Shown here: one piece after another, positions 4,389-64,000 of the stretch
How the letters are laid out: each line of letters starts with the position of its first letter
Numbering within the stretch: position 1 is the stretch's first letter
Made by a program: the position numbers and the translations under genes
The notes under the pieces: generated by a model
The model's input: only the letters and a program-made list of their open reading frames with translations
The model's database searches: none
What the model was told of the DNA's origin: nothing
Source: Schmidtea polychroa
Lineage: Eukaryota
Direction: 5' to 3'
NCBI GenBank assembly: GCA_044892525.1
Contig: CM097886.1
Location: 163,668,312-163,732,311, forward strand
DNA: 64,000 bases

Positions 4389-4444
4389 TCATCCTTAATT
4401 CATTTATTTTATCTTACTTATTATTATCCTTAATTCATTTATTT

Positions 4445-20915: not shown

Positions 20916-21030
20916 TTCATCTCTTTGTGATAATACAGCTCCAATTGTATCAAAGCTTGCGTCTGTATCTAATATGAATTCTTCTTGAAATCTGGAAATA
21001 CGAGAATTGGCGCTGTAGTCAACGCCATTT

Positions 21031-23869: not shown

Positions 23870-24125
23870 TTATTTTTATAACAACTTCAAAATTGTGCCG
23901 TTTACTAGAGTATTTAAACACCGAGGCGTGATAATTATTAATATTAATGTAATTACTGGTCATAAATTTAATTGATTTAATTTAATATAATTTAATATAA
24001 TATGATATAATTTAATATAGAATTTAAATATAAAAATTTAACAGAAATAATTATTTCTACTAACTGATCTCACTTCTACCATTTAACCATAAAAATCTTA
24101 TATAGAGATTTACTAACTCCTTACA
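23833..24125 (-). repeat. 5' LTR of the gypsy element
   Basis: Minus strand reads TGTAAGGAG...GCGTCTAACA. Confidence 0.95.
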
Positions 24126-28465: not shown

Positions 28466-28836
28466 TAATTTATACACTAAAATGTAAAGAATTTTATTTA
28501 TTTTATACAACAACAAAAAAAATTGGAGTAACAAATGGTAGATTGATTAATCGGTGCTGGTATTTTGCCACTGAGATGCTGTTGTACTTGCTATCTCTAC
28601 CGCGATTAAAAGGAAACGCTACATACGATAATACCCTAGCCTATTTCCATTGTTAATTAAGACCCACTCAAGGAATAGAAGTTTATTATTCAACAACAAA
28701 CGCTAATCATTAATTAAGACATATTCAATGAATAAAAGCTTATTATTTAACAACAAACATTAGTCAAGTTCGATTATCAAGTACGCTACCAACAATAAAT
28801 GAAAATTATTAGAGTAAGTCATATGTCAGCTTGCAA

Positions 28837-37496: not shown

Positions 37497-37572
37497 TACA
37501 CAAATAATGTTTATAATAATGATATAACTATTAAATATGGATTAATAATAATACTAATATTTAATACTACTA

Positions 37573-40816: not shown

Positions 40817-43800
40817 TGTTGGGCTAGAACTGATTTCTAAACCCAAAGTTAGGAATGGGACGAAATGTGTCAGTACACAACACGCATACCCAGCATTAAG
40901 TTTACTTAAATAAAAATATATAAAACACCAAGTAAACAATGATAATAGAGAGATAATATACCCAAAAATAAAACATCTGAATTAAAAATAAAATAAAACA
41001 CGAGCAAGAAGTATTACACGAAAACTTACTCAAATATAACCGAAAGACATAAAACAACAAAAAACAAATTCGAATAAAGGCAATTAGTAAAAATTAAAAA
41101 AAGAAAATTAAAGAAAATCTTCATAAAATCTTACGTAAAGAAAATTATATCGATATTTTGAATAAAAATCCAGAACAATTCATAAAAATGGCGAAATCCA
41201 TCATGACGGCCAAACGACCCAATAAAATTTATAAAAAATAAATATTTTAGTTTAAAAAATAAATATTTTAGAAAAGAAATCATAAAAAACAATTTAAAAA
41301 TAAGAAATAGATTAAATTTAGCATGGAATGTTCTGGAAATGCTGAAATCCATCATGGAGGCAAATTTAATAAAAAATAATTCGAAAATAAAATTTCAAAA
41401 ATAAAAACAAAAATTCTTACTGAAAAATCGCCATTAAAATCGATAAAAATTAAAAATCGAATGTTCGAGAATTAAAATAATTCGAATTTGTTTTACTGCA
41501 TCAATGCACGCATGTATACTTACACGTCAAACAGAGGCTATATAAACTAACACATTTCGTCACTTTGAAAGGAAGGAAAAAATGCAAATGAATATTTTTA
41601 CTCTTATGCCAAATTTTTGGTTTTGATTTTTCTGAGATTGTAGGTAAGGACGATTTCATTGTGAATTATAAATTATTATTATTGAAACCTTGTTTTCATT
41701 ATTTCTTTTTAACTATAGAAATGTAGGTTTGAGTGAGATCGTCGGTTATCATTGATTTTGAAGCGAGATCCCAGCCAACCCTGCACCTATGCACTTTATC
41801 ATCGATGAGTAAACAGCCTACAATGATTGCAGGCCACTGCCTGGCACGCACTTATCAATATTATTGGGTTTTTTTTTTGTTTGTTCAGGTCATTCGGAGG
41901 TCGCACCACTTCATGGTTCTGCCATGGAGTTAAGTCGATGAAATCCTCCGTCTGACTCTACCTATTTATTATAGGTCAGCCGTAAAGGGTTGACTTACCA
42001 CACAACAGTAAGGTTTGTCGTAGTGGTCACAGTGGGGCCGCGAAAGCAAACACTCTTCCCGACTTTCAATACATGAATAACTTACATAGTTAAAATCTAC
42101 ATCCAAAATCATCACAATACAATACACTAAGGTTAATAAACAGAGTAGATCTCAGACCTAAATTAATCACAACTCTACAATTCACAATTAATGTAGACGG
42201 TTAAATATCATCAAGAACCCACTCTACCTATACGTTTGTCGAATCTAGATTCATGAATGTCTTAAATAAATTTTTTTAGTAATAGTGTAAAGCAAAGATT
42301 TTTAAAGATGATTAATTTAGTAGTGATAGTATTCATAAAGGTGTTCGACATGCGCATCAGCAAGACTTGGATTTTAAATTGAATAGACTCTAAACTAACT
42401 ATAAAAATACCAATCGTAAACCCATAAAAGTATAAACTATCCTCTCAATTTCATAAAAATATGAATTATACTTATAGATTCAATTTCTTCAAAATATAAA
42501 TTATGATTAGTTATAAAAGTATAAATTATAAATTTAATTTCCTAAGAATATAAATTACAAATCTATATTGACGGTAAAATTATAAATTATAACTCTAAGT
42601 TAATTACAAAAGTATAAATTATAAAATTATATTAGCCTTAGAACATAAACTATAAATTTAACTTAACCTCATAAAAATATAAATTATAAACTTAAAAGTA
42701 TAAATTATAAAGTTATATTAGCTTTAAAAATATAAATTATAACCTTAACTTCATAAAAATATAAATTATAAAATTATATTGGCTTTAAAATATAAACCAT
42801 AAATTTAACTTCATAAAAATATAAATTATAAACTTAAAAATATAAATTATAAAATTATATTAGCTTTAGAAATATAAACTATGAATTGAACTTCACCAAA
42901 TATAAATTATAAACTTAAAAATATAAATTATAAAATTATATTAGCTTTAAAATATAAACCATAAAATTAGCTTCATAAAAATATAAATTATAAACTTAAA
43001 AATATAAATTATAAAATTATATTAGCTTTAGAAATATAAACTATAAATTGAACTTCACCAAATATAAATTATAAACTTAAAAGTATAAATTATAAAATTA
43101 TATTAGCTTTAAAATATAAACTATAAATTTAACTTAACTTAGATTGCCTTTAACATCATAGTTGAAAATTTTTCATCAAAGACCCCCCATAAACCATATA
43201 GTCATCAACTACCACCTAAATATACTAAATTAGCTTATCTTAATATACATTTAACTTATATTATATTTAAAACTATAAATTGTAAATTTTTATGAATGAC
43301 CCCCCTCAAAATCATACAGTCATTACCCATTACCTAAGCATACTAAATTGACTTATTTTTAATATATATTTAACTTACATTATAATAAAAAATATAAGTT
43401 GTAAAATTTCATGAATGACCCCCCTCAAAATCATACAGTCATTACCCATTATCTAAGCATACTAAATTGACTTATTTTTAATATATATTTAACTTACATT
43501 ATAATAAAAAATATAAGTTGTAAAATTTCATGAATGACCCCCTCAAAATTATACAGTCATTACCCATTACCTAAGTATTTTAAATTAACTTATCTTAATA
43601 TATATTTAACTTATATTATATTTTAAAATATAAATTGAAAATTTTCATAAATGACCCCCCTTCAAATCATGTAGCCATTAACTATTCCTTAGGTACACTA
43701 AATTATATCATCTTCGTATAGAGTTAAATTATATTTCAAATCAAACCAAAAAATAAATAATTCCATAATTTTCGCAAAAGATACTCCCATATGTGGGAAT

Positions 43801-45939
43801 CTTGTAAAAAAATAAACTTACATTTATTATTATTATTAACATTATTATTATTATCGTTATTAATATTATTATTATTATTATTACTATTATTATTATTATT
43901 AGTATTATTACCATTAACATTACCACTCTTATCATTATTATTACTATTATCATTACTATTATTATTATATTATTAAAATAATTATCTTTATTTCAAAAAA
44001 TAAAATTATAAAACCGATTATTGATTTTGGGATTCCCCTATCTCTAAATTTAGTCTCAATGGCCCTATCTTCCAATAAAGTTACGGAAAATCACTAAAAT
44101 CTATTTTTAGTAACACCCCCCCCGGAAAACGACATCAATATTATTAATTTAAATTATATCCATATATAGGTATGTGTGTATATGTATATGTATATATATA
44201 TGTGTGTGTATATATATGTGTGTGTGTGTATGTACATACAGATTTATAAAGCAACCTTATAAAAATACGATAACCTTCCCCCTCAAGACCCCTGTTATGT
44301 GATGGTCACAACCCCCTTAAGGTGATGGAGCGAGGTTAGAGTAGTTTACTGAAGTAATTTAGTAGAATCATTTATTGATTTATTAGAATTATTGGATTTA
44401 TTTTTAACTAAATCAAAAGAGACTAAATTTATTTTTAACTAGATCAAAAAAAAAGAAAAACAAAGACTAAGTTTATTGATTTCGATCATCAACTTTATTC
44501 ATATAATTGTTTCTTTGAATCATAGTTATACCAAGGTCCTTCGAGCACGGTTGATGGACCATCCCAATGAAATACATTTCCTGGAGTTGGAAGACTTCTG
44601 GATAATTCCTTATTTTCTGCTTCGTTCCTTTTGGTTCAATGACTTACATATTGATTTGACGTAATATTGTTGGATGGCCAACTATATTCCTTGCATCTCT
44701 TTTTGAGTAGTCATTGTCAGATAATTCCGCCAGGAAGATTAGTTGGTGGAACTGACCTTGGGGCAATCAAACCTTCGTACCTCACTGAATTATTATCAAC
44801 TCGATTGCTAAGGAAATTAATGAAGTTAATTAATTAAATTAAGGAAGTTAATTACAATTTTCTCATTGGTGTTGTCAAATGATCTTTGCTCATTCGAGAT
44901 GTCATAATACATTATTGATCAATAGTAATTGTTCGGAGATTCGGCCAAATGCTGATATTCCTGAAATATTATGAAATTTTAGGATATAAATGCTTAAAAT
45001 TTTAATTTATTTACATTATTATATCAAAGTTAACTAAAATCATATATTTATTCAAAATTTGTTATTTAACATTAATTATAATTACTATAATAAAACAACG
45101 AAAATTTAAATAATGTTAAATAACTTTAACAAAACAAAAAGTAATAATGAAATCAAAATTCCATTACTTTATTTAAATTATTAGTTACCAACTTGTTCTA
45201 GTATTTTAACCTAATGAATTCAAGTATATTACGGAGTTAGTTTGGTCGTTTGAGGAATATTATAAATTGAAAATTTAAGTAGATTAGAATTATTTACTCT
45301 TCATAAGAACTTTTATGATTGTAATGAATCTAAACTTCATATATTAATATTACCCATAATTTACAAGTGATATTTGGATTATGTTAAAATAGGTTGTAAG
45401 TTAACTTAACTAAATTGAAATTTTCTTTTGATCAGGTTATCGTGGGGAATGCATGTTATCTTTATCATTTCTATTGTTTCAGTTTATTAAGTTTTTTTTT
45501 TATTTTCTAATTAAATTCATTAGTCTCAAAAATTTCTTGAGGTTTGTTTAATAAACTATGGTTATGTTTCACTTAATTTATATTCAAACATTTTAGATGT
45601 GGTGTTGTATGAACAGGCTTTAATAGAGTAATGTATGATTCCTGATGACTTATGATCGTTTGAGGATAGAAAGTTTGTATAGGCATAGTTGAGGAAGTGA
45701 TTATAATAAGGGACCTGCGTAAATCGGACATACATCTTCTAACGATAGTCCGTGAACCCATTAGAGTGCTCGACAATTACAGTGCAAGTAGTGCGCTCAC
45801 TTTTTGCGAGTACTCACCGTCTTGATACAGTACCAACGTTGATCGTTCAACGGGTATCAAGCGGTAAACAATGTTGTATCTTGGGTTACGCTGGTAACAG
45901 CACTAAAGAGCAAAATATTTGATCATCAGTAACCCACCA
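40817..45939 (+). repeat. 5' LTR (5,123 bp)
   Basis: TGTTGGG...CCCACCA. Contains an AT minisatellite (about 42430-43130), about five 119-bp units (about 43140-43740), (ATT)n and (TA/TG)n tracts. Confidence 0.96.
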
Positions 45940-45947
45940 TACAAATT

Positions 45948-45965
45948 TGGGGGCTCAGCCGGGAT
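45948..45965 (+). promoter_or_regulatory. Primer-binding site for tRNA-Pro
   Basis: TGGGGGCTCAGCCGGGAT matches the classic tRNA-Pro PBS TGGGGGCTCGTCCGGGAT at 16 of 18 positions; 8 nt downstream of the LTR end. Confidence 0.85.
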
Positions 45966-46827
45966 ATTTAAACTTTCTTGGTAAAGAACCTGTAAGTAGA
46001 CGGGAATGCATAGCAGTTTTTTGATCAGGAAATGAAATGCTTTATGCAAGAGTAAGAAAGATTGTTTTCTCAAATAACTAGACATGATGTGTGAATATGC
46101 GTGTATGATCAAAATGAATGTTGAATGTTGTACATGATGAATAAAATGTTTTAAATTATGTAAATATAGAAAATCGATAAAACTGGGTATGAGAATAATG
46201 TATGAGCGTTCCGTGTTGATGGGACAGAATGTTGATGGGTAAGAAATGAAATAAAAATCAAAAATAATAAAAATTGTAAATATAAACAACTAATACTTTG
46301 GATATAAGAAAATAATAAAAAATTCAAAAATAGGGAAAAGGGGGGGAATAGAAAATAACGGTATAAAGAAAAAGGGGATAAAGCATAAAACAGTGAATTG
46401 CGAAATAGAAATAGATAGATGATGCAATTAATTAAAAATAGGGGGAAGATGTAAAACTACGTTAAAGATTAAAGGGGTATATTGAGTATTTGATAAAATG
46501 ACTAAAATTATGGACAAGCTGGGATCAAAAGGGTTATGTAGACTAAGATAATAAACTAGATGGAACGGATAAGAATGCGCGGAACATCATTTAATGGATT
46601 GGGAGCCTAAACTAACAGGGTAAAACAGCTATTGAACTTACATAATTTGAATAAGGAAATAAATGTGTAGAGGTAAGCTAATTAAAGGGGAATAAGAACA
46701 CTTAATAAAATGCTGAATTAATAAAGTATAACTTGATGGAATTAACCGGCTACATTATAAAGAAACTTGAAAATTCGTAAATTTAACTAACAACTCACTA
46801 CAAAGATTGAATTGAAAAGCAGAGCAG

Positions 46828-47206
46828 TTGGCAAACACTCAAGAAGGGCTGATCTTAAAACCAAGACCAGTAGATGATGAATTGTGTATAATGATGAGAA
46901 TTGCTACACCAAATGTGGAATTAACTACTCAAAGAGTATATCAGATTCAGAATTTACGTTTAGATAAGGCCAAATTTAACATCAAATGGCAAGAATTAAA
47001 GATAAAAATTTAAACGGTTGAAGATGCGATAAGAGAGGCGATCGATAATGAATTCAAAGGTTGTGTGTGTAGAAGCAATGAGATAAAAATAATGATGGTA
47101 CCTTGCGGACATCTATGTTATTGCCAAGATTGTGCATTGAAACTGAAGCGATTGTAATGTATGTGACGCAAACATGAGAGAAAGAGTAGTAGTGTACCTC
47201 CCTGAG
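46828..47206 (+). pseudogene. Decayed ORF ending in a C3HC4 RING finger (IAP/MGRN1-like C-terminal RING)
   Basis: After an in-frame TAA (47011-47013) the frame reads GCVCRSNEIKIMMVPCGHLCYCQDCALKLKR; a +1 shift then gives CNVCDANMRERVVVYLP. Confidence 0.8.
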
Positions 47207-48632
47207 GGAGATGTAGAAAAATTGAAGATGATGAAATGAATTGCAGCCGAGTGTGAGTTAGTAGAATGTTAGTAAAACTAATTCCATAATAGCAACCGAA
47301 AGGTATAAAACATACGTTGAACATAGACATATGAAATACACAAAAGCCGTTAAATAAATAGACAAGCAACACACAAATTAAATTGGCGAAAGCCGTGAAT
47401 TAAATACAGGACTGGCTGGGATCGCATCAAGTGTGAGCTGATCTATAAGATCAGTACGATTACCATTTTTTTTTTCCTGTTTTTTTTTTTATTTTTGGCA
47501 TAGAGAGACAGGACCATAAGGGGATGAGAAGCATATCGTCCCTACGATGCTTACCCGGATGGGGAAATCCTGATCACCTTGATGAGAAGAGTATAGTAGG
47601 GCCCATCGCAAATGTTGGGGAGTTTCTGTCGAGTGACTGATCACCACTTGTGGGAAATGAACCAACGCGATTATTATATTTTTTGAATTTGGGAGACAAG
47701 GACAAACTAGAAGGTAAATAAAAAGAAAAAGATAAAAAATAAAAATTGAAAAGGTGCACCAAAAGATAAAAATTTTAATTATCCGAGAGCAGCTGCGGAT
47801 TTGAAGAAACCGTTTTTGGACTTCAAATTGGATGATATGAATTTTTCCCTAGCGAGTGATGAGGCACCCGAGTACAGCGGCTAACCACCGGACTGTAGTG
47901 TCCAGGAGATTATCAGCCAAGGGACTGATGATGCTGGATCACCCAATACAAAAACCCGGATACCCACACCGAGTATTGGGTGCATTTTTTTTTGATTGGC
48001 TAGCGGGACTTGATACAAAAACCCGGAAGGGTAGCGAGCGAGAGAGACCCAGTTACCTACACCGAGTATTAAGGAGCCCAGTGAAACGGTTGTGAGATGC
48101 GGGTCAACCGGTAAAGGACTCGTACTCAACAGGCAACCAAGATTGGACCAGTTGTGAGGCGGGAGACCGAGAGTCAACTGCATATCCAATTTCCTTTTAT
48201 CTTCACTAGTCGGGAGATCTGGTTCATCACTTTTGAGAATCAAGATCGAGGCGATTAGGCATTTCCGTGTTTTTTAAATCCTGATAGATAGGATGTTTTT
48301 TTCTTCGTGATTATTGCTAGCAGGGGTCGGTACAAAACCCGGATGCCCACACCGAGTACCGATAGGCCCAGTGAAACGGCGATGAGATTAGGGTTACCGG
48401 TATTAAACTCTTTTCAATAGGCGGCCAAGAATTGAGCTAGTTGTGAGGCCTCAGCAGATTAATAATTTGAGTAGGAGGAACCTTAAATTTTTAATTGGTC
48501 CGAAAGTCAACTGTCAACTCAATTTAATCGCGGTAGGGACGATAGTAGGTGTAAAAACTGAAGGCGTCTGGGGGTTGAAGAAACCTCATTTAGGGCATTT
48601 GAAACCGATCAGGGACCGAAGACCGCGAATAC

Positions 48633-49120
48633 GGCGTAAAGGTGTAAAAGCCCAGGCGTCTAGGAGTCGTAAAAGACTTCAAAGATTAAAAGTATAATTA
48701 AACCGGCCGGAAGCCGATGCCGACGCGGAGGTCTAATAAACCGAAGCGTTGATGGTTGATAGTGAATTATATGGCGTAATGGTGTAAATACCCAGGCGTC
48801 TAGGAGTCGTAAAAGACTTCGGAGATTAAAAGTATAATTAAACCGGCCGGAAGCCGATGCCGACGCGGAGGTCGAATAAACCGAAGCGTTGATGGTTGAT
48901 AGTGAATTATATGGCGTAATGGTGTTAAAGCCCAGGCGTCTAGGAGTCGTAAAAGACTTCATGAGATTAAAATGAGTTGATTAAACCGGCCAGAGAGCCG
49001 ATGGTAATTGAATGAAAATAAATGATTTAAATGAAATAAGAGAGGTGATTAAACCAGCCAGGGAGCCGATGGTAAATAAATGTAGACGTAGAGGTCGCGC
49101 GAACCGAAGCGTCGATGATT
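48633..49120. repeat. 140-bp tandem repeat (2 full copies plus decaying copies) in the leader upstream of gag
   Basis: GGCGTAA.GGTGT...CCCAGGCGTCTAGGAGTCGTAAAAGACTTC starts at 48633, 48773 and 48913. Confidence 0.9.
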
Positions 49121-49830
49121 AACTATGAACGAAATAAAAGAGATAAACGATTAAGATGAAATCGATTAAATTGACATAGATTAAGTGCGACAAAGAGGTA
49201 ATGATTAAAGGAAAATTATGATAGAGCGCCGGCGCAAGAGAAAATGAAACCAAATTTTTGAATGGGGAAAAGCGAATGAGGAGATATTAATTAAGTTACT
49301 GATGAGTTTTATATGTATATGACTAATGATATATATTTTTGAATTATATAATTGATGTGGTGATTATACGATAGATAATTGATACGACGATATAGATAAT
49401 TGATACGAGTTATAGATAATTAAAAATGGACTTAAATTCAAAGGGGGGTGAGTAGCAAAAAGTAAAAGCGTACCATGAATTAGAAAAGGAACAGCGAGAG
49501 AAATAATGAGTAAAGAGTAGTATAAAATAAAGAAAATAGGGAAATAAATGAAGGGTAGGATAAAATGAATAAAATATTATGATATGTACTAGGAGTGTTA
49601 ATTATTTTAGAATAAGTCAATCAATAAGTCAGAAGGAAGTCAATACAAGCCAAGAATTCAAGAGAAATAAAGAGAAATCAAAAATTCAAAAGAAAACAAA
49701 TAAGGAATCAAGAGAATCAAACGAGGATAGAAGAAAGGTAAACAAAGTCAAATTAAATACCAAGAGGAAAATTAAAGCGTTGGCCAACGAAACACAGTGA
49801 AATTCAAAAGAGATTATTAAAGCGAGAAAG

Positions 49831-51393
49831 ATGGATAAAAAAGCCAATCGAACGAGATTGCAGAGTAAAGGAGGCTCTAGTTTATTAGGAAACGCAGAGA
49901 GACAAAGAGCCAAGAGAAACAGAAGAATCAATAAGAAACCAGCGCCAGTGAAAACATTATTTGAATCAGACAGCTTAACCAACGAAGGTGAAAACAGCGA
50001 CGATATTAAAAGAAACGAATTATATCCGGTAACTGATATCAAACCAACAGACAAGGAAGATAGTAGTTCAGGCATGACAAGTTCGTGTCGAGATATAATG
50101 TTAGACGGAAACCAAGTGAACAACCCGAATGGGTCAGAGTTGACATACACACCAGAGATAAACCATGTTAATGTCAATGTTGGAGAACTTAGAGAAAGAT
50201 TTCGAGGAGAACCATTCGATGGGAATATTAATGAACTAGAAACGTTTATAAAAGAATTCGAGGTATATATTACAATATGTCACTGGCCAGACATAGTCGT
50301 ACGAGAGCGAATACCATTATATTTAAGAGGAAGTGCACAAGATGTATATTTAGAGGCAAAGTGTGATGCAACAAAACTAAAAACATGGAAATCAATAAAG
50401 AATTTTTTAATAAAAACATTCGGTAGCAAAAGGGAAGTAAATCGCAAAATGTTGGATTTTCTGCATCGAAAGCAGAAATACAATAAGTCAAACGCTCTAT
50501 ATGCATGTGAATTAAGACGACTGGCAAAAGAAGCATTCGATTCAAATCAAACAGTTCCGGAAGACAAGATAATAGCCGTATTCGTAGAGGGTATGAAAAG
50601 AAAGGACATACGAGCAACAGTGGGGTGCCGAGCACCAGACACGCTCGAGGAAGCATTAAAAATCGCTAATAAATGTGAAAACTACTTGACTCCAGTACAA
50701 GTAGCAGCAATGGCAGCAGTACCAATAGCTACAACACCAACAACGACAACCGAAATTAATCAAACCAACAATGGAAATCTAGGAATGAATCAATTTATCT
50801 CAGAATCGCAACAGTTGTTCAAGGCGCCAAAAATGACAAATCCAGATAACAGAGGTAATATTCAATTTTATACTAATAATTTCAGGAACAACGAGAACAA
50901 TAATCGGAAGTGTAACATATGTCAACGACTAGGACATTGGAGCAACGAGTGTTATAAGACAAGGATGTGCCAAAATTGCGGTAAAAGGGGTCACACAGAA
51001 AATATATGCCGAGGACCAATGATGTCGATGAGAGGAGGAAGGACTAGAACCTGCTACAGTTGCAACCAACTTGGACATGTGGCGAGAGAATGCGCGATGA
51101 AGACAAAACATAATCAACCAAGAGCAAACGATCCAAGTCAAAATATACAAATCAACATCATGCAGAAAATTGAACAGTCGAAAAAGATGATCCAACGGAT
51201 ACCAGAGGATATCCGGAAACGACCAACAAGAGAACAACAAGACCAGCAACGAATCGAAGGGCAGAGACCACTAAACGAAAAAGCCAGAGAAATTCAAAAA
51301 AAGATGGAAAAAGCGAGAAACCAACACCGGAAGAATAAATATGATGAGATCAATGAACAAAGGGGAACCGCACACTGCGGAGCAGTGTGTTAA
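49831..51393 (+). CDS. gag: Ty3/gypsy-type Gag, 520 aa, with three CCHC zinc knuckles
   Basis: Capsid-like FIKEFE...IPLYLRGSAQDVY...TWKSIKNFL...FVEGM...TLEEALKIA; knuckles CNICQRLGHWSNEC, CQNCGKRGHTENIC and CYSCNQLGHVAREC. Confidence 0.92.
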   Translation: MDKKANRTRLQSKGGSSLLGNAERQRAKRNRRINKKPAPVKTLFESDSLTNEGENSDDIKRNELYPVTDIKPTDKEDSSSGMTSSCRDIMLDGNQVNNPNGSELTYTPEINHVNVNVGELRERFRGEPFDGNINELETFIKEFEVYITICHWPDIVVRERIPLYLRGSAQDVYLEAKCDATKLKTWKSIKNFLIKTFGSKREVNRKMLDFLHRKQKYNKSNALYACELRRLAKEAFDSNQTVPEDKIIAVFVEGMKRKDIRATVGCRAPDTLEEALKIANKCENYLTPVQVAAMAAVPIATTPTTTTEINQTNNGNLGMNQFISESQQLFKAPKMTNPDNRGNIQFYTNNFRNNENNNRKCNICQRLGHWSNECYKTRMCQNCGKRGHTENICRGPMMSMRGGRTRTCYSCNQLGHVARECAMKTKHNQPRANDPSQNIQINIMQKIEQSKKMIQRIPEDIRKRPTREQQDQQRIEGQRPLNEKAREIQKKMEKARNQHRKNKYDEINEQRGTAHCGAVC

Positions 51394-54300
51394 CAAGGAA
51401 GGGAGCGATATAACCGTAATCAACGAGACGAAAGCGATAAAAGAAAATGGGTCACATCAATTGACGGAGCAATTGACAGAACTGAGTAGCGAGGATAAAA
51501 TAAAAATAATACAAGAGTTCACCAAAGAGGAAAAAGAAAAAAAGAGACGAAGAAGTGATGAAACAGGGCACGAACCAAAAAGCAACGAGATTGTTACAAA
51601 GAATCGAATTCAGAGGGTATTACTACAAAAAATTGAAGATAGAATTAGAAGAGAAGAACCAAATTTAACGGATGAGCAAGTAAAAGAAAAAGTAAAAGAC
51701 AACTGGTTCAGGAAAAATGAGTGGTTCGAAAAGAAAGAACCAAGTAACAGAGCCAATATAAACATGCTGAGACAAATACAGAAGGATCAGACGGACCAGG
51801 AAGACGAGAAAAGTACGATGAGTAGTCTGAGAAGTGCATTATCTCAATCAAGTGATGAAAATAATGAACAAGGAACACCTCAAAATAACGAAGAGGGTGA
51901 GAGCGACGATATGAAATCACTGATAGAAAATGACGATGAGGAAATATTTGAGGAAATTTCCGACACGGTATCGGAAAGAGAACGAAATGAGAGCTATATC
52001 AACGAACCAACATACAGAAAATGTATAAAACTGATAACTCAAGCATACCAGTGGGAAGGAGATATATTAACGGCAACATGGAAAGATTTGGTGACGAAAT
52101 ATAAAGGAAAATTGAAAGAAGTTGATCCAGATCAATACCAAGTAAGTATTCAACACCCTGAAACTCAGATACAGATTATTGAATTAAAAGTAACAAATAC
52201 CGATAAACTGTATAATTGGGTACAACAAAAGATGGGAACAAGTCATAAAAATAAACAGCTATACGACAATGGTTATAAAGTTAAAACGAGCATACATTTA
52301 GTAGATGTGATGATATGGCCAAACGAAGTTAATATCTTAATCTTAAAGAAAAACAGAGACAACGAATCAGTAACGGAAATACTGAGAAAAATCCAACAGA
52401 TATTCAACAATGAAGTGGAACCAGAAATAGAAAAGATTGAACGAAAGATTATGAAGGAAAATCAAATAATCTTAGTAAAACAAGCAATCGATCAAACGAA
52501 GAAATATATTAACAGATTTAGGGAAAGATGGCCGCAGCTAATGAAACAGTTTGTCAAAGACGTACGGGGTACTGAGATTATGGGATTTGAATATAAACGA
52601 ACAACGGAGTTGATATCAAAATATGGTGAATACGAGAGAATCAGATGTGAACAAGAATTACCATGGCCATCCAATAGAAAAGTGACAATAGTAAAAGAAT
52701 CACTGAAGAATAGTCATTTAGATAAACACGAAGAAATGATCAAAACATCACATGTCGAAGACGACATTTTTGGAAAAGGCCGTAGTGGAAAAAATGACAA
52801 AGACCATAACGACAAAAATGAGGAAGACGACGGGAACCATGAAAGGAACAACATAAATGGGAATTCAGGCGAACGATATAATAAAGAAGACAAGGAGTCA
52901 GAAGATGACGACGAAGACTTGAAGGATACTGAGGACAACTCAGACCAAAGTGAAGACAACCAACATAATGAAACAGAGAACGACAAACGAAAATCCCCAC
53001 TGCATAACATAGTAATGCGGAAGAATCCAAATCAGTCACTCCTACTACAAATTATCCTAATAATACTAACGTCAATTTGCCTAACAGAAACGAAAAATAC
53101 GCGAATTACGAGAAGAAATCTGAAAGAAGGCGAACTATTCATGATAAAAGTCAGCGGTAACGACGGAAACGCGGTCGGGATATGCATCCAATTGATGGAA
53201 GGAACCGGAGTAAGTTGTGATTTTAGAACGATAACAAAAGGGAGGATTTTCAATAGTCAAAATGGAGAAACTGAATTATGCGGAGACTACAACATTTGCG
53301 AAGACATAACATCAGAAGAAAAAGAATTGGAAAGAGCTAACGAAACCGGAGTACACCTCGCAATTAAAGCTACAATGGAAGGTATCGAAATAATAGATAA
53401 AGGAAATTTGCCAACAACGCAAATATGTTTTAGAGATGACGAAGACATATGTATAACGGTGGACATGAAACGAGATCGCGAATTTTTTTGGACAAACGTA
53501 AAACCAAACACCAACATGGTGGTATGCGCAGGTACCCAGGCAATAGTGGTATGTAAAGCAGTTAAAACCGCGCAAATAAAAAGCAGGCCAAAAAGTATGG
53601 CTAGTAAACGATATCAACCAAGGATCAAACCGGCAATTAAGAAACCCCAGAAACAATCCCGTACGGGAATGATAAGAGGACAGCACCAAACCAAGAAAAA
53701 CACAACAGTAAAATGGATCAAAGATGAGAGACGAGAAGTACTAGTAAATGTCGAATTCAACAAGAAAAGAGAAGAAGTAATCACGGTCAGAAACCAAGGT
53801 GAAGAACCAATAGTAAGAGTATGTGTACTAAACAGGACAGGAATAGTCGACTGCATAGAAGCACTACTTGACAAAGGTGCAGAAGTTAAAATGACAATAG
53901 GAGAAAGAAAGGGACGATACCACATATGCGTTCTTAAAAACGGAAGCGATTTAAGTTCATGCCAAGCAATAACCAGACAACGACCACGGTTGATAAACAT
54001 ACCATTGGCAACCAGAAAACCAAAAGAAGTGGAAAAGCCAAAAGGAAACGAACATCTAACGGCAGAAGAAACGAAACAGTTATACCAGATGCTCAAGAAA
54101 AATAAAACACAGGAGGCAACTACAACAGAAACTAAAATGATGATGACGACAGGAAAATTCAACAACAAGACACTGATAACCGTTAAAATGATGTGGATCG
54201 CTAGCGCAATAATGAGTGCAGTGATAACATCAATAATAATCCAATGGATAAGAACCTCCAAAATATGTAAACAAAAACCTAAAGGCAGAAAAAAATGGCC

Positions 54301-54523
54301 ACAAGTGGAGAATTCCGAATATGGTATTCCAACAGAAAACCAGAATCCAGAAGAGTACGAAGCGATTGAAGATCCAAGGTCAAGCAGACTATGGACGCAA
54401 AAATTACTCAGAATACAAACCCTAGACGATTGGGTAAACGAATTTGACATATACCGGCTAACGGATGAAAGATATGGGGGAATGCGCACATTGCATTCAG
54501 GTCCCCTGGCAACAATGGTATAA
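51341..54523 (+). CDS. ORF2, 1,060 aa: charged N-half, internal signal-like segment, three 4-Cys repeats, C-terminal TM helix and tail (env-like position, unknown family)
   Basis: Uninterrupted 3.2-kb ORF. Hydrophobic LLLQIILIILTSICL follows the Met at 53015, then RITRR; TM-like MMWIASAIMSAVITSIIIQWI at about 54190-54250. Confidence 0.85.
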   Translation: MMRSMNKGEPHTAEQCVNKEGSDITVINETKAIKENGSHQLTEQLTELSSEDKIKIIQEFTKEEKEKKRRRSDETGHEPKSNEIVTKNRIQRVLLQKIEDRIRREEPNLTDEQVKEKVKDNWFRKNEWFEKKEPSNRANINMLRQIQKDQTDQEDEKSTMSSLRSALSQSSDENNEQGTPQNNEEGESDDMKSLIENDDEEIFEEISDTVSERERNESYINEPTYRKCIKLITQAYQWEGDILTATWKDLVTKYKGKLKEVDPDQYQVSIQHPETQIQIIELKVTNTDKLYNWVQQKMGTSHKNKQLYDNGYKVKTSIHLVDVMIWPNEVNILILKKNRDNESVTEILRKIQQIFNNEVEPEIEKIERKIMKENQIILVKQAIDQTKKYINRFRERWPQLMKQFVKDVRGTEIMGFEYKRTTELISKYGEYERIRCEQELPWPSNRKVTIVKESLKNSHLDKHEEMIKTSHVEDDIFGKGRSGKNDKDHNDKNEEDDGNHERNNINGNSGERYNKEDKESEDDDEDLKDTEDNSDQSEDNQHNETENDKRKSPLHNIVMRKNPNQSLLLQIILIILTSICLTETKNTRITRRNLKEGELFMIKVSGNDGNAVGICIQLMEGTGVSCDFRTITKGRIFNSQNGETELCGDYNICEDITSEEKELERANETGVHLAIKATMEGIEIIDKGNLPTTQICFRDDEDICITVDMKRDREFFWTNVKPNTNMVVCAGTQAIVVCKAVKTAQIKSRPKSMASKRYQPRIKPAIKKPQKQSRTGMIRGQHQTKKNTTVKWIKDERREVLVNVEFNKKREEVITVRNQGEEPIVRVCVLNRTGIVDCIEALLDKGAEVKMTIGERKGRYHICVLKNGSDLSSCQAITRQRPRLINIPLATRKPKEVEKPKGNEHLTAEETKQLYQMLKKNKTQEATTTETKMMMTTGKFNNKTLITVKMMWIASAIMSAVITSIIIQWIRTSKICKQKPKGRKKWPQVENSEYGIPTENQNPEEYEAIEDPRSSRLWTQKLLRIQTLDDWVNEFDIYRLTDERYGGMRTLHSGPLATMV

Positions 54524-54669: not shown

Positions 54670-55758
54670 TAAATAAGAAATGAATCAGAGAAACGAGGAT
54701 CAAGTATATCAAACGAGGATACCACATGTTGTTGAATTGGGAAATCAACCACTAGTAAACATTAATCAGACATAAATAGTAGAAATTGATACAAGTACAA
54801 CGATAAACCAACCAAGTTAGTCAGCAGGATCAATGTGAATAACACAATGTGAATTAATATCAAATGACAAACCATACCCATGAATATCGGTTACGTAATT
54901 AGAATGCGTTAATGGAGAGCATCAATAGAAACTCGATATATGTAACAAGAATAAAAGAGCAACAACAAATAATCGCACAATAAGAATACAATAACAAACA
55001 GTTGATAAGCCAAATAAAATGGTAGACAGGAGAAATCAGGAGATTACGCGAAGACCGTCAGCATGATGATATCACGAGTTAAGTTGAGTGGATAACCGAC
55101 CTACCAGGAACTGGGGAACCGGACTCAACAGGAGAGACATAAAAGAAGGGAAAGTAGCCCTGTAAACAAACAAAATTATAGCCAAAGTAGAAGCTCCGAG
55201 ATTAAACGCTATCATGGCAGAATGCCGAGAGAAAGTGGAGAGAAGTGGAGGAACAAAACTATTAACTATGAGCTGAAAAGAAAATATTAGGTCAAGTCAG
55301 ATGAATTCGAGGAGAGACTATTGTGTGCGGACAAAGATTATTAATAAGAGCACGTCAAACCCTATATGGATGTAGATTATGCCATGGAGGTACTACACGA
55401 CTTGTAACAAGAAAAGCAGAAGTTAAAGAGAGAACCACAGCAAGAATCAGCCACACCCCAGATGACAATAATAATAAAAATCTTAGAAGAAATAAAGCAG
55501 AAAATAATGATGACTGTCAACGAATGTCCGAGCAACTATGAAACAAAGACGCTCGAAGAAATAAAGGAAAGGGTAAATAACGCAGTCAAAGAAAAGCTAA
55601 TTACTCAAGATGAAAAAATAAAAACATTGAGAGAGATATAGATGGAAATAATAACAACTATGAACAAAATCCCGATGAACCATGAGACAATGACCAAAAC
55701 GTTAGAAGGAATAAAAATGAGAATATCAACTACCTTCAACGCAGACTTCGTATACTAA
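54670..55758 (+). pseudogene. Decayed third ORF region (coiled-coil-like)
   Basis: Codon-like stretch, e.g. VKPYMDVDYAMEVLHDL*QEKQKLKRE...LEEIKERVNNAVKEKL...FNADFVY*, with several stops and shifts. Confidence 0.4.
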
Positions 55759-55811
55759 AATGTCCTAATAAAGATGCTCATGGAAATCTAGAAAGGAGTA
55801 ATGACAACTGT

Positions 55812-55812
<1 letters not shown>

Positions 55813-55846
<34 letters not shown>
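55813..55846 (+). repeat. Poly(A)34 tract
   Basis: Seen directly; AATAAA at 55767-55772 upstream. Confidence 0.95.
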
Positions 55847-55849
<3 letters not shown>

Positions 55850-56269
55850 ACACACTAAATCAAATAACCTCGAAGAAGAACTCAACTCGACTGATACAAT
55901 CCAACTAATTAAAACAGTGAGCATGTGACGAGAGCTAAAGAAAGAAGTGACAATCAAAACAAGGGCAGCAGAAGAAGAAAAAAAATTTGAATGTAAAGAA
56001 AACCCCGAATCCATAACAGTACCGATCCTGTTAACAGCGAATCTCATGATAAATAACAATACTGAGCTTGATAGCCCTTAATCCCACTCAAATCCATGAA
56101 AGTACAAAAACTCAAGTTGAAAGAACAATTCCGAAGCATTCGCATTCTAATAGAAGAACCAATACCCAGAGACTAAATCTATCAAATCTATCTTCTACAA
56201 CCTTCAAATCTAGAGCCGTCATCGAGATGGGATCCCGAACAACCAAGTATTTAAATCCTGATATAAACC

Positions 56270-56781: not shown

Positions 56782-59700
56782 TGTTGGGCTAGAACTGATT
56801 TCTAAACCCAAAGTTAGGAATGGGACGAAATGTGTCAGTACACAACACGCATACCCAGCATTAAGTTTACTTAAATAAAAATATATAAAACACCAAGTAA
56901 ACAATGATAATAGAGAGATAATATACCCAAAAATAAAACATCTGAATTAAAAATAAAATAAAACACGAGCAAGAAGTATTACACGAAAACTTACTCAAAT
57001 ATAACCGAAAGACATAAAACAACAAAAAACAAATTCGAATAAAGGCAATTAGTAAAAATTAAAAAAAGAAAATTAAAGAAAATCTTCATAAAATCTTACG
57101 TAAAGAAAATTATATCGATATTTTGAATAAAAATCCAGAACAATTCATAAAAATGGCGAAATCCATCATGACGGCCAAACGACCCAATAAAATTTATAAA
57201 AAATAAATATTTTAGTTTAAAAAATAAATATTTTAGAAAAGAAATCATAAAAAACAATTTAAAAATAAGAAATAGATTAAATTTAGCATGGAATGTTCTG
57301 GAAATGCTGAAATCCATCATGGAGGCAAATTTAATAAAAAATAATTCGAAAATAAAATTTCAAAAATAAAAACAAAAATTCTTACTGAAAAATCGCCATT
57401 AAAATCGATAAAAATTAAAAATCGAATGTTCGAGAATTAAAATAATTCGAATTTGTTTTACTGCATCAATGCACGCATGTATACTTACACGTCAAACAGA
57501 GGCTATATAAACTAACACATTTCGTCACTTTGAAAGGAAGGAAAAAATGCAAATGAATATTTTTACTCTTATGCCAAATTTTTGGTTTTGATTTTTCTGA
57601 GATTGTAGGTAAGGACGATTTCATTGTGAATTATAAATTATTATTATTGAAACCTTGTTTTCATTATTTCTTTTTAACTATAGAAATGTAGGTTTGAGTG
57701 AGATCGTCGGTTATCATTGATTTTGAAGCGAGATCCCAGCCAACCCTGCACCTATGCACTTTATCATCGATGAGTAAACAGCCTACAATGATTGCAGGCC
57801 ACTGCCTGGCACGCACTTATCAATATTATTGGGTTTTTTTTTTGTTTGTTCAGGTCATTCGGAGGTCGCACCACTTCATGGTTCTGCCATGGAGTTAAGT
57901 CGATGAAATCCTCCGTCTGACTCTACCTATTTATTATAGGTCAGCCGTAAAGGGTTGACTTACCACACAACAGTAAGGTTTGTCGTAGTGGTCACAGTGG
58001 GGCCGCGAAAGCAAACACTCTTCCCGACTTTCAATACATGAATAACTTACATAGTTAAAATCTACATCCAAAATCATCACAATACAATACACTAAGGTTA
58101 ATAAACAGAGTAGATCTCAGACCTAAATTAATCACAACTCTACAATTCACAATTAATGTAGACGGTTAAATATCATCAAGAACCCACTCTACCTATACGT
58201 TTGTCGAATCTAGATTCATGAATGTCTTAAATAAATTTTTTTAGTAATAGTGTAAAGCAAAGATTTTTAAAGATGATTAATTTAGTAGTGATAGTATTCA
58301 TAAAGGTGTTCGACATGCGCATCAGCAAGACTTGGATTTTAAATTGAATAGACTCTAAACTAACTATAAAAATACCAATCGTAAACCCATAAAAGTATAA
58401 ACTATCCTCTCAATTTCATAAAAATATGAATTATACTTATAGATTCAATTTCTTCAAAATATAAATTATGATTAGTTATAAAAGTATAAATTATAAATTT
58501 AATTTCCTAAGAATATAAATTACAAATCTATATTGACGGTAAAATTATAAATTATAACTCTAAGTTAATTACAAAAGTATAAATTATAAAATTATATTAG
58601 CCTTAGAACATAAACTATAAATTTAACTTAACCTCATAAAAATATAAATTATAAACTTAAAAGTATAAATTATAAAGTTATATTAGCTTTAAAAATATAA
58701 ATTATAACCTTAACTTCATAAAAATATAAATTATAAAATTATATTGGCTTTAAAATATAAACCATAAATTTAACTTCATAAAAATATAAATTATAAACTT
58801 AAAAATATAAATTATAAAATTATATTAGCTTTAGAAATATAAACTATGAATTGAACTTCACCAAATATAAATTATAAACTTAAAAATATAAATTATAAAA
58901 TTATATTAGCTTTAAAATATAAACCATAAAATTAGCTTCATAAAAATATAAATTATAAACTTAAAAATATAAATTATAAAATTATATTAGCTTTAGAAAT
59001 ATAAACTATAAATTGAACTTCACCAAATATAAATTATAAACTTAAAAGTATAAATTATAAAATTATATTAGCTTTAAAATATAAACTATAAATTTAACTT
59101 AACTTAGATTGCCTTTAACATCATAGTTGAAAATTTTTCATCAAAGACCCCCCATAAACCATATAGTCATCAACTACCACCTAAATATACTAAATTAGCT
59201 TATCTTAATATACATTTAACTTATATTATATTTAAAACTATAAATTGTAAATTTTTATGAATGACCCCCCTCAAAATCATACAGTCATTACCCATTACCT
59301 AAGCATACTAAATTGACTTATTTTTAATATATATTTAACTTACATTATAATAAAAAATATAAGTTGTAAAATTTCATGAATGACCCCCCTCAAAATCATA
59401 CAGTCATTACCCATTATCTAAGCATACTAAATTGACTTATTTTTAATATATATTTAACTTACATTATAATAAAAAATATAAGTTGTAAAATTTCATGAAT
59501 GACCCCCTCAAAATTATACAGTCATTACCCATTACCTAAGTATTTTAAATTAACTTATCTTAATATATATTTAACTTATATTATATTTTAAAATATAAAT
59601 TGAAAATTTTCATAAATGACCCCCCTTCAAATCATGTAGCCATTAACTATTCCTTAGGTACACTAAATTATATCATCTTCGTATAGAGTTAAATTATATT

Positions 59701-61904
59701 TCAAATCAAACCAAAAAATAAATAATTCCATAATTTTCGCAAAAGATACTCCCATATGTGGGAATCTTGTAAAAAAATAAACTTACATTTATTATTATTA
59801 TTAACATTATTATTATTATCGTTATTAATATTATTATTATTATTATTACTATTATTATTATTATTAGTATTATTACCATTAACATTACCACTCTTATCAT
59901 TATTATTACTATTATCATTACTATTATTATTATATTATTAAAATAATTATCTTTATTTCAAAAAATAAAATTATAAAACCGATTATTGATTTTGGGATTC
60001 CCCTATCTCTAAATTTAGTCTCAATGGCCCTATCTTCCAATAAAGTTACGGAAAATCACTAAAATCTATTTTTAGTAACACCCCCCCCGGAAAACGACAT
60101 CAATATTATTAATTTAAATTATATCCATATATAGGTATGTGTGTATATGTATATGTATATATATATGTGTGTGTATATATATGTGTGTGTGTGTATGTAC
60201 ATACAGATTTATAAAGCAACCTTATAAAAATACGATAACCTTCCCCCTCAAGACCCCTGTTATGTGATGGTCACAACCCCCTTAAGGTGATGGAGCGAGG
60301 TTAGAGTAGTTTACTGAAGTAATTTAGTAGAATCATTTATTGATTTATTAGAATTATTGGATTTATTTTTAACTAAATCAAAAGAGACTAAATTTATTTT
60401 TAACTAGATCAAAAAAAAAGAAAAACAAAGACTAAGTTTATTGATTTCGATCATCAACTTTATTCATATAATTGTTTCTTTGAATCATAGTTATACCAAG
60501 GTCCTTCGAGCACGGTTGATGGACCATCCCAATGAAATACATTTCCTGGAGTTGGAAGACTTCTGGATAATTCCTTATTTTCTGCTTCGTTCCTTTTGGT
60601 TCAATGACTTACATATTGATTTGACGTAATATTGTTGGATGGCCAACTATATTCCTTGCATCTCTTTTTGAGTAGTCATTGTCAGATAATTCCGCCAGGA
60701 AGATTAGTTGGTGGAACTGACCTTGGGGCAATCAAACCTTCGTACCTCACTGAATTATTATCAACTCGATTGCTAAGGAAATTAATGAAGTTAATTAATT
60801 AAATTAAGGAAGTTAATTACAATTTTCTCATTGGTGTTGTCAAATGATCTTTGCTCATTCGAGATGTCATAATACATTATTGATCAATAGTAATTGTTCG
60901 GAGATTCGGCCAAATGCTGATATTCCTGAAATATTATGAAATTTTAGGATATAAATGCTTAAAATTTTAATTTATTTACATTATTATATCAAAGTTAACT
61001 AAAATCATATATTTATTCAAAATTTGTTATTTAACATTAATTATAATTACTATAATAAAACAACGAAAATTTAAATAATGTTAAATAACTTTAACAAAAC
61101 AAAAAGTAATAATGAAATCAAAATTCCATTACTTTATTTAAATTATTAGTTACCAACTTGTTCTAGTATTTTAACCTAATGAATTCAAGTATATTACGGA
61201 GTTAGTTTGGTCGTTTGAGGAATATTATAAATTGAAAATTTAAGTAGATTAGAATTATTTACTCTTCATAAGAACTTTTATGATTGTAATGAATCTAAAC
61301 TTCATATATTAATATTACCCATAATTTACAAGTGATATTTGGATTATGTTAAAATAGGTTGTAAGTTAACTTAACTAAATTGAAATTTTCTTTTGATCAG
61401 GTTATCGTGGGGAATGCATGTTATCTTTATCATTTCTATTGTTTCAGTTTATTAAGTTTTTTTTTTATTTTCTAATTAAATTCATTAGTCTCAAAAATTT
61501 CTTGAGGTTTGTTTAATAAACTATGGTTATGTTTCACTTAATTTATATTCAAACATTTTAGATGTGGTGTTGTATGAACAGGCTTTAATAGAGTAATGTA
61601 TGATTCCTGATGACTTATGATCGTTTGAGGATAGAAAGTTTGTATAGGCATAGTTGAGGAAGTGATTATAATAAGGGACCTGCGTAAATCGGACATACAT
61701 CTTCTAACGATAGTCCGTGAACCCATTAGAGTGCTCGACAATTACAGTGCAAGTAGTGCGCTCACTTTTTGCGAGTACTCACCGTCTTGATACAGTACCA
61801 ACGTTGATCGTTCAACGGGTATCAAGCGGTAAACAATGTTGTATCTTGGGTTACGCTGGTAACAGCACTAAAGAGCAAAATATTTGATCATCAGTAACCC
61901 ACCA
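56782..61904 (+). repeat. 3' LTR (5,123 bp), no differences from the 5' LTR seen
   Basis: All five shared ORF-track landmarks sit at offset 15,965 with identical translations; both termini match. Confidence 0.96.
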
Positions 61905-62404: not shown

Positions 62405-64000
62405 TTAAGTAAAAAAGAATAAATGTTCTTCTTCCTCCCGCACCGCATCCCAATCTATTTCTTTTACATGACAAATAGGCTTAGGCGGATTAGAGCGATA
62501 AACGACCTTTCTACCAAATTTATATCGTGGGGGCATTCGAGCTTTAACCATTGCTTTTTCAATTTTTAAGGCTTCAGCTTCTTTTCTCATTTGTTTTTGT
62601 TTAATTCTAGCAGCTTCTCTTTTACGTTCATCAACTAATCGTTTGGACTTTTGAATAGTAGACCTGTCGTATGATTGGAGTTCAATATATAGAGAATTAA
62701 TTAGACTTTCAATTCTTCGCAACATTTCAACTGTGTTGCTTTTCGTCGAATCTACTTTTTCAAAAACCGAATGATAAAGAGTAATGATTTTCTCGTGCAG
62801 ATAGTCTATCATTTGGTCAATGGTCGTGAACTCCAAGTCTCCGAAATTGAAGATCTTCTTATATTTTTCTAACTCATCAAATTTTAATATGAAATGATCA
62901 ATCTCATCAATGCAAGCAATATTGTCAAGTAGATTTCCAAGTTTGGTTTCTTCCTTTCTGACGTGTCCATCAATTACAAAATTTTGACTCTCCATGTCTT
63001 GTTTGATTTTTCGGATTTTTACCCTCAAAAGCTCACACATTTCTTCCTGTTCTTGGACATTTTCTATCAAACTCAAATTATTGGACTCTAAATTGCTCAG
63101 TAAGTTCACCAAATCTTGTGGACTTTCTAAAAACAAATCGGTTTCATACAAATCATTTTCATCAAAGACCTTTTCTATAGATTCAGCGCTTTGAAACTGC
63201 TGAATGGAAGAAAACTCCGGCATTTCTAGGAGCTCCTCCAAATCCGATTCATTGCTGGCGTTTGTAAATCCAGACAAAATGAGAGATTTTATTTTCTCCA
63301 AGCGATTATGAGTCTTTTCAGAAAGACTATTATTATTTTGGTTTAATTCTTTCACTATGGCAAAGTTGGAATTTGTGTTTGTAATACTGGCCCTCATTTT
63401 ATTAAATACCCTCAATTCACTGTCAGATTTGGAATCTTGTGAGTTAAAGGAATGCAACTCATCTGATAAGGCGGTTTTAATCAACACATCAATTTTCAAT
63501 TCCTCCATAAAGCTCGTTCTTTCTAATACATGTTTCTTTTCCCGTTGCACATGGCACTGTCTTAGGAACTCTTTATATGTTTTTAATCTCAAATATTCCT
63601 CTTCCAGTTTGACACAATCGGCATTTAAATGTGCCATATTGTAACGGGCTCTTTTAACATTTTCAATGACTTCATTTTTCTTGGCCGTTTGTTTTTCAGC
63701 AAGTTTGATGGCGTCAGAAGTTTTCTGACAAATCGTTTTCATGTTCTGATTGTGAATTTCGAGCTGTTTCTGAAGTTCTTCGTTTTTCTCTTTAATGGTA
63801 TTTTCTTCCTGGATGATAATTTCATCAAGTTCTCGAAGTTGAACTTCTTTCATATTGATTGCTAGATCCAACAAACAAACTCGTCTTTTGTCAACGATAA
63901 AATGTATATTTGATTTGAATTTCTCTCTCAACTGTTGTGTCTTAGTTTTTGATGCTTCTGGCGAGTTCAATTCCTGCATTACATCAACCATATCCTGGCT
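62405..64000 (-). CDS. CFAP100: CFAP100/CCDC38-family paralog 3; 5' end probably beyond the window
   Basis: FIVDKRRVCLLDLA, YKEFL, SPQDLVNLLSNLESNNLSLIENVQEQEEMC, GRKVVYRS and terminal LFFFT. Lacks the N-terminal ~100 aa seen in the other two paralogs. Confidence 0.8.
   Translation of the reverse strand, partial: SQDMVDVMQELNSPEASKTKTQQLREKFKSNIHFIVDKRRVCLLDLAINMKEVQLRELDEIIIQEENTIKEKNEELQKQLEIHNQNMKTICQKTSDAIKLAEKQTAKKNEVIENVKRARYNMAHLNADCVKLEEEYLRLKTYKEFLRQCHVQREKKHVLERTSFMEELKIDVLIKTALSDELHSFNSQDSKSDSELRVFNKMRASITNTNSNFAIVKELNQNNNSLSEKTHNRLEKIKSLILSGFTNASNESDLEELLEMPEFSSIQQFQSAESIEKVFDENDLYETDLFLESPQDLVNLLSNLESNNLSLIENVQEQEEMCELLRVKIRKIKQDMESQNFVIDGHVRKEETKLGNLLDNIACIDEIDHFILKFDELEKYKKIFNFGDLEFTTIDQMIDYLHEKIITLYHSVFEKVDSTKSNTVEMLRRIESLINSLYIELQSYDRSTIQKSKRLVDERKREAARIKQKQMRKEAEALKIEKAMVKARMPPRYKFGRKVVYRSNPPKPICHVKEIDWDAVREEEEHLFFFT

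Follow-up and report, generated by a model that had tools for sequence, protein, structure and literature searches.

The window analysed here is a 64,000-nucleotide stretch of the Schmidtea polychroa genome (GenBank assembly GCA_044892525.1, contig CM097886.1, positions 163,668,312 to 163,732,311 of the forward strand), and it contains a long terminal repeat (LTR) element of 21,088 nucleotides on the + strand. The segment at 53015..54523 of the window, which a preliminary description had put forward as a candidate new envelope or surface protein, is almost certainly (probability about 0.95) the module at the C-terminus of a Burro-like gypsy polyprotein, present here in a Gag-fused deletion family that has lost both pol and env. 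The segment is neither a stand-alone envelope nor a new envelope class; the earlier reading overlooked the fusion to Gag, the deletion of pol and env, and the Burro-like parent. With a probability somewhat below one half (about 0.45), the module may function as an accessory type-I glycoprotein for attachment or tropism beside a glycoprotein B (gB)-type fusogen, by analogy with herpesviruses, which pair gB with separate receptor-binding glycoproteins.

Derivation of the element from a Burro-like parent

The parent family consists of approximately 30-kb elements (LTR starts 30,463 nucleotides apart), three loci of which were fetched. Its 4,791-amino-acid polyprotein comprises, in order, Gag, a MATH domain, a Monjiviricetes fusion glycoprotein (Env), protease, reverse transcriptase, RNase H, integrase, ankyrin repeats and, at its end, the module. 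The preliminary description had let its proposal depend on conservation of the cysteines among family members, and they are conserved: 14 of 14 align between the parental and derivative modules, which are 59% identical, and all are invariant across 12 of 12 parent copies.

The frame of the derivative begins with Gag (49831..51301; capsid and three CCHC knuckles, PF19259, PF03732 and three matches to PF00098), whose capsid shares 85% identity with Gag of the 4,791-amino-acid family. It continues with a charged post-nucleocapsid spacer (51302..52657) that matches the parent polyprotein in tblastn (71% over residues 5-951), with homology reaching about residue 967. Two in-frame deletions join residue ~951 to a 29-amino-acid scrap of the MATH domain, and the scrap to an acidic linker (52741..53014) that is predicted to be cytosolic and precedes the module in the parent too. 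The junctions lie at 52658..52740 (tblastn segments 5-951, 952-980 and 964-1572), and the sequences lost at them are a Ubl-like region, most of MATH, Env, protease, reverse transcriptase, RNase H, integrase and the ankyrin repeats. In the window copy the single frame of the family is split by a frameshift (51285..51302) into overlapping open reading frames (ORFs; 49801-51393 and 51275-54523); this frameshift, near 51,290-51,300, may be genuine or may have arisen in assembly. Because it splits the Gag-led frame, the module had appeared to be fused behind about 558 charged residues; that region exists, but it is the middle of the frame and not the N-terminus of the protein.

A search of the same genome with the module scored 85 copies of 595 candidates, all of them 94-100% identical. 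Frames of at least 1,565 amino acids contain 60 of the 85, and 53 of these have no stop in the match. Since most copies have one unbroken frame, the normal product of the family is a Gag-spacer-module frame of ~1,572 amino acids, and a programmed gag-env frameshift was rejected for the same reason. In a search with the capsid, which scored 150 of 2,734 candidates, about 110 matches had at least 95% identity, none of them in a frame over 1,580 amino acids, and identity then jumped to 85-86%, where many matches lie in 4,791-amino-acid frames; no autonomous element among those scored is closer than 86% in capsid. The family is young and high in copy number, and it derives by internal deletion from a Burro-like gypsy element of 30 kb. 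Some derivative copies lie ~16 kb apart on the same strand (G000:C2:16295277/16311278, C1:85870672/85887082 and C1:199549081/199565097), a spacing that would fit tandem elements with one LTR in common.

This system has a known fusogen. It is the Env of the parent (PF24664, E 2e-68, between Gag and protease), a separate protein that was deleted from the window element along with pol, and the suggestion that the module is itself a new envelope in the sense of a fusogen is not supported. The parent also possesses accessory ORFs of RING and BIR plus RING type (Pfam) and one that looks TRAF-like by eye. A BCL2-like motif before env, the published detection of which rested on earlier annotation and HHpred, gave no Pfam hit in the corresponding region of the parent. 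In a BIR search for further Burro families (150 scored of 309), nearly all of the frames fell into a single size class. Another ORF of ~160 amino acids (MENLRKDRE...), without a Pfam hit, is found inside the LTRs of parent copies (L044 near 317-850; L051-L054) and also at 28007-28546 (- strand) of the window.

Predicted structure and topology of the module

All of the listed motifs are carried by the frame at 51275-54523, of which the module forms the last 502 residues. On re-reading, the motifs were located as originally given (Met 53015, RITRR 53102, GNAVG 53165, GNLPT 53402, GEEPI 53798, transmembrane start 54188, stop codon 54521-54523). The module opens with an internal signal-like segment (53015..53095, by hydropathy) ending ...SICLTET; its predicted cleavage site resembles the end of the internal signal of the parent Env (...CIKGTES), and both ends have small residues at -3 and -1. 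The ectodomain (53096..53989) contains three four-cysteine repeats, D1 (~53096-53320), D2 (~53330-53572) and D3 (~53714-53989), the last two separated by a basic linker. It is followed by a partly Thr-rich stalk with N-glycosylation sequons (53990..54187), a transmembrane helix recognized by hydropathy with a basic stop-transfer patch (KICKQKPKGRKK; 54188..54253), and a cytoplasmic tail with conserved Tyr motifs YEAI/YEVV and YGGM (54254..54523). The tail is 69% identical to that of the parent, with a ratio of nonsynonymous to synonymous substitution rates (dN/dS) of 0.20.

Hydropathy, flanking charge, sequons and the cysteine pattern all fit the type-I pattern of the preliminary description. 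Only two segments in the whole ~1,572-residue frame reach a Kyte-Doolittle 19-mer average of at least 1.8 (1.95 and 1.83); the maximum over residues 1-1060 is 1.23, and two such separated hydrophobic segments occurred in 6 of 2,000 shuffles of the module. The recurring I-x-M-type border motif of the parent is found after Gag and after integrase, and not convincingly before the signal of the module. RITRR, described at first as a basic site and tried as a conserved maturation site, was rejected: the parent has RIVRE, only a minimal R-x-x-R.

The three four-cysteine segments are present as described, with spacings slightly wider than the original ranges (C-x10-C-x20-C-x5-C, C-x7-C-x24-C-x8-C and C-x9-C-x24-C-x10-C for the twelve cysteines of the ectodomain). 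The homology among them is modest, as judged from shuffled alignments: D3 resembles D1 or D2 at P <=0.021 in five of eight pairings (0.071, 0.101 and 0.384 in the others), and similarity between D1 and D2 was not significant in any of four pairings. AlphaFold2 (AF2) modelling and Foldseek, which had been recommended for the repeats, were informative for D3 only. The AF2 model of D3 (input D3 and D2 rows of both families) has a mean predicted local distance difference test (pLDDT) of 78.4 and seven strands, and D3 is predicted to be a seven-stranded immunoglobulin (Ig)-like sandwich. Each cysteine pair of the model lies on neighbouring strands, not at the canonical Ig position, and probably forms a disulfide. 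Its F-G strands may resemble those of FN3 domains in leucine-rich repeat proteins. The model of the whole module, built from two sequences, is poor (pLDDT 35.7).

Structural comparison of D3 by Foldseek (PDB and BFVD) retrieved generic Ig-like sandwiches with TM-scores of no more than 0.65, the best being an archaeal pilin (E 7e-4); CD147 and dengue domain III came next in a long series of such matches. VIA, run on the poor whole-module model, gave a best Z of 9.0 (root mean square deviation 2.5 over 77 residues) with no standout, and placed IFNAR2 D2 at Z 7.1 (2.5 over 73). On these models, no specific fold family can be named for the module. Sequence searches agree with the preliminary description that the module has no known fusion signature and no routine domain: nothing in Pfam exceeded the cut-off, with no fn3 hit and no PF24664 hit at E up to 1-10; there was no usable homologue among PDB sequences and no match at 0.9 or above in the ESM Atlas; 0 of 186 pattern matches in metagenome contigs were confirmed; and a search with longer proteins found no homologue among 3,395 candidates, nor did one with the module alignment among 4,997. 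Two borderline matches to protein representatives (E 6e-4 and 1e-3) were judged spurious on inspection. No host donor gene was found in searches of the animal's own genome, which scored the best candidates only. Literature searches found no title or abstract beginning that describes the module.

Proposed role of the module

The parent polyprotein would cross the endoplasmic reticulum (ER) membrane twice, first Env with its internal signal and transmembrane segment and then the module with its own, while Pol and the ankyrin repeats between them would stay cytosolic. The internal hydrophobic segment of the module is predicted to re-open ER translocation, and signal peptidase to cut after TET, releasing a type-I glycoprotein of ~475 amino acids. 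Three disulfide-stabilised Ig-like sandwiches, well modelled for D3 only, would fold in the lumen; the transmembrane helix would stop transfer, leaving the tail in the cytosol. As an attachment protein it would then reach budding particles or the cell surface and bind a host receptor, which may confer tropism on, or trigger, the class III fusogen. A derivative copy would supply its own Gag and module and depend on the parent for protease, reverse transcriptase, integrase and Env. Three reads of one raw RNA run, labelled as another organism, aligned, which speaks neither for nor against expression, splicing or internal initiation.

A receptor-binding part is often required by class III fusogens, and a conserved Ig-like membrane protein under selection, in a fixed position after integrase across three env-bearing lineages, is a candidate for this part, or for a surface immune decoy. 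Burro-type elements are suspected to be integrated viruses, and the module is a concrete candidate for what chooses their target cells. The helper-dependent design is unusual, in that Pol and Env were dropped and the module was kept, and the host animal is tractable for study.

A search of the genome with PF24664 identified other env-bearing families, and four loci were fetched. Behind integrase, the 3,334-amino-acid polyprotein of one family has a C-terminal module made up of a signal-like segment, a beta-rich stretch of about 300 residues, a stalk, a transmembrane segment and a tail with PPSY and YETRL. A second family (C2/C52) has a 37%-identical version of this module, and one of its copies (L079-L082, G000:C52) has lost pol and kept Env and the post-integrase module in frame. 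The module of the 3,334-amino-acid family (L068:8127-9191) has a PPxY tail and, by eye, FN3-like L-x-P-x-x-x-Y motifs; searches with it found no homologue. The next ORF in L079-L082, of 486 amino acids, bears what looks by eye like an exonuclease motif. Flatworm errantiviruses of GAG-ENV-POL order might more generally be two-glycoprotein viruses, with a gB-type fusogen before Pol and a swappable Ig-like attachment protein after integrase, whose satellite families would retain Gag together with an attachment protein of their own, obtain fusogen and enzymes from the helper, and in this way steer their own tropism; this generalization is less probable than the role proposed for the module itself.

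Selection on the module

Between families, selection was estimated by the Nei-Gojobori method from one copy each. The dN/dS of the module, parent versus derivative, is 0.25 (confidence interval 0.19-0.35) at a dS of about 1.0, and that of capsid is 0.06. Within the parent family (12 copies, one further copy having been dropped for length), shared module variants number 40 synonymous to 12 nonsynonymous, a ratio of nonsynonymous to synonymous polymorphism (pN/pS) of 0.09, and those of the ectodomain 18 to 5. Purifying selection on the module is strong among parent copies.

The derivative was sampled by 60 fetched copies; the frame is covered by 58 of them, with 56 unique sequences. The copies were picked from the best module matches, a choice biased against module damage. 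The frame of the module has been retained while the accessory ORFs have not. The 160-amino-acid IAP-type RING ORF of the parent (PF13920) survives as a remnant (46771..47203) that shares 63% identity with it and is broken by stops and a frameshift, and an uninterrupted match to this ORF was found in 0 of 60 copies (58 with stops, two without a hit). The downstream ORFs (the 153-amino-acid ORF, the RING/TRAF-like ORF and the 341-amino-acid ORF) are broken remnants at 54680..56250, and the IAP (BIR-containing) and coiled-coil accessory ORFs have been deleted from the window element. Stops and frameshifts common to many copies are found in the RING, 153-amino-acid and TRAF-like remnants. At their rate of decay about 13 family-wide stops or frameshifts would be expected in the module, and there are none (Poisson P 3e-6; 4e-5 from the RING rate only). 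The Gag part of the frame has shared variants of 60 to 118, synonymous to nonsynonymous, and its 15 stops are each confined to a single copy, none being shared (Fisher P 2e-5).

Several observations weigh against an attachment role, or against its persistence in the derivative. Shared variants of the module among the 56 unique derivative copies are 16 synonymous to 53 nonsynonymous (pN/pS 0.94), those of the ectodomain 5 to 30, and the module has two shared stops, one each in ectodomain and tail; because this variation looks neutral, present-day selection on the module in the derivative is not supported. The accessory ORFs may have decayed in a now extinct autonomous parent before the deletions occurred, which would weaken the argument from frame retention. 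D1 and D2 have no fold in the AF2 models (pLDDT about 30). The modules of the other env-bearing lineages are not detectably homologous to that of the window (hhalign P 0.17 and 0.55), which leaves position and topology as the grounds for a shared role. The module variant ratio differs between parent and derivative (P 1e-8), whereas the replacement excess in the derivative ectodomain (shared pN/pS 1.2-1.7) is not significant (P 0.10-0.19), nor is the difference in nonsynonymous to synonymous ratio between module and Gag in the derivative (P 0.13). The simplest reading is that the module is important to the parent and was long kept in the derivative lineage, and that in the present burst the constraint on it has been relaxed or has changed.

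Alternative explanations

The module could instead be a decoy or receptor mimic, a captured three-domain Ig- or FN3-like receptor that damps immune or death signalling at the cell surface together with TRAF/MATH, IAP and ankyrin cargo. This is distinctly less likely than attachment. The parent does carry MATH, BIR plus RING and ankyrin, interference of such elements with apoptosis and ubiquitination has been proposed (PMC6431247), the tail with its Tyr motifs is as conserved as the ectodomain, and cytokine-receptor and FN3 domains (IFNAR2 D2) are among the generic fold matches. Those fold matches are non-specific, however, and the searches described above yielded no host or database homologue, own-genome searches scoring best candidates only. 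The derivative dropped all of the other anti-apoptotic cargo and kept the module, and the 3,334-amino-acid env lineage has an equivalent module but no tblastn match to the MATH or ankyrin regions of the parent.

A membrane tether is less likely again. The first hydrophobic segment would stay on the upstream chain after cleavage and anchor Gag (with Pol in the parent) at the assembly membrane, as the only anchor left to the derivative after the loss of Env. That segment is indeed the sole hydrophobic one before the transmembrane helix in the derivative; Gag, spacer, junction and signal have no shared stops, the two shared stops lie one each in ectodomain and tail, and the shared pN/pS of 1.2-1.7 is that of the ectodomain. 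Such a tether leaves unexplained the strong purifying selection on the ectodomain and tail of the parent and the lack of any family-wide disablement over 475 downstream codons, and the contrast with Gag rests on small numbers that are not significant.

The module might also be a passenger that functions in the parent only and is kept in the derivative since the deletions are recent or since an open frame shields the RNA from nonsense-mediated decay. The neutral-looking shared variation would fit, as would the upstream frameshift of the window copy itself. This explanation is improbable in view of the synonymous divergence of about 1 from the parent and of the capsid search, in which every match of at least 95% has a frame of no more than 1,580 amino acids and no autonomous element among the 150 scored candidates is closer than 86%.

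That the module is a new fusogen or a factor for spread between cells, allowing the derivative to move in the absence of Env, as retention of the module and a precedent for env-independent spread by a transmembrane protein (PMC11952523) might suggest, is highly improbable, given that the ectodomain has no further hydrophobic stretch (maximum 19-mer 1.39), that three small Ig-like units do not correspond to the architecture of any fusion class, that the parent keeps both proteins and that the derivative still needs Pol in trans.

Other features of the element and the window

The two LTRs (5' LTR, 40817..45939; 3' LTR, 56782..61904) are each 5,123 nucleotides long and 100% identical, with TG...CA ends. 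CCCT on both outer flanks is read as a 4-nucleotide target-site duplication. Directly 3' of the 5' LTR is a primer-binding-site-like motif (45946..45965), present in the same place in the window and in three of three other copies checked and near-identical in the parent; it may resemble the 3' end of tRNA-Pro. AT-rich tandem arrays with periods of 81 and 118 nucleotides are present in the LTRs (42400-43960 and 58370-59930) and differ in length among copies. The 5' leader (46716-48859) is 84% identical to the parent at the DNA level, compared with 77% for the coding region, and may contain a conserved signal for packaging, as use of a helper would require. A retroposed host mRNA with poly(A) was rejected as an origin: the A-rich tract after the stop codon is also A-rich in the parent, inside the LTR element.

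Elsewhere in the window are three intronless coiled-coil ORFs with DUF4200 hits (9303-11318 on the + strand; 35607-37541 and 62405-64000 on the - strand, the last with an open end), which look like a local paralog cluster, and an intronless eIF4G-like ORF with MIF4G and MA3 domains (15904-17859, + strand). A ~5-kb gypsy element (19123-24125, - strand) has 293-nucleotide LTRs that are 99% identical and a split pol, and an inverted relative of it is located at about 4400-6900.

Comparison with known elements

Burro1/GYPSM1 are giant planarian gypsy-like LTR retrotransposons with a 4,873-amino-acid ORF (PMC6431247). The parent family resembles them in its ~30-kb length, single 4,791-amino-acid ORF, Gag with three CCHC knuckles, MATH, in-frame env before protease, ankyrin repeats and BIR accessory ORF; it is Burro-like by published description and architecture. 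The window element shares with them the Gag with three CCHC knuckles, but is 21 kb long and encodes Gag and the module only, with neither a single ORF of ~4,800 amino acids nor a BIR ORF. Neither a membrane module at the C-terminus nor a derivative lacking pol is named in the passages on Burro in PMC6431247.

[quoted passage not shown] The parent and two other lineages share this order and Env type. The passages on them there describe only F-type and gB-type Env, whereas the type-I protein after integrase is a second membrane protein. The five-domain fusion ectodomain of PF24664 is not found in the module, and the module differs from the F-type Env of errantiviruses and baculoviruses, whose conserved furin site precedes a hydrophobic fusion peptide and heptad helices, in that RITRR is not conserved, no hydrophobic stretch follows it and the ectodomain is predicted to be mostly beta. 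In the comparison with FN3 and cytokine-receptor ectodomains, D3 has seven predicted strands, no Pfam fn3 hit and generic fold matches as noted above. Gag-only non-autonomous LTR elements of the TR-GAG-like kind resemble the derivative in having LTRs, a primer-binding site, Gag under frame selection and Pol borrowed in trans; unlike them, the derivative keeps a 500-amino-acid membrane module in frame behind Gag. Finally, sORF2 of MDG1-group retrotransposons, a non-Env transmembrane protein linked to spread between cells (PMC11952523), is short and encoded by a separate ORF, and FAST-like fusogens are short single-pass proteins from small ORFs, whereas the module has ~500 amino acids with a multi-domain, putatively disulfide-bonded ectodomain and lies inside a polyprotein frame.

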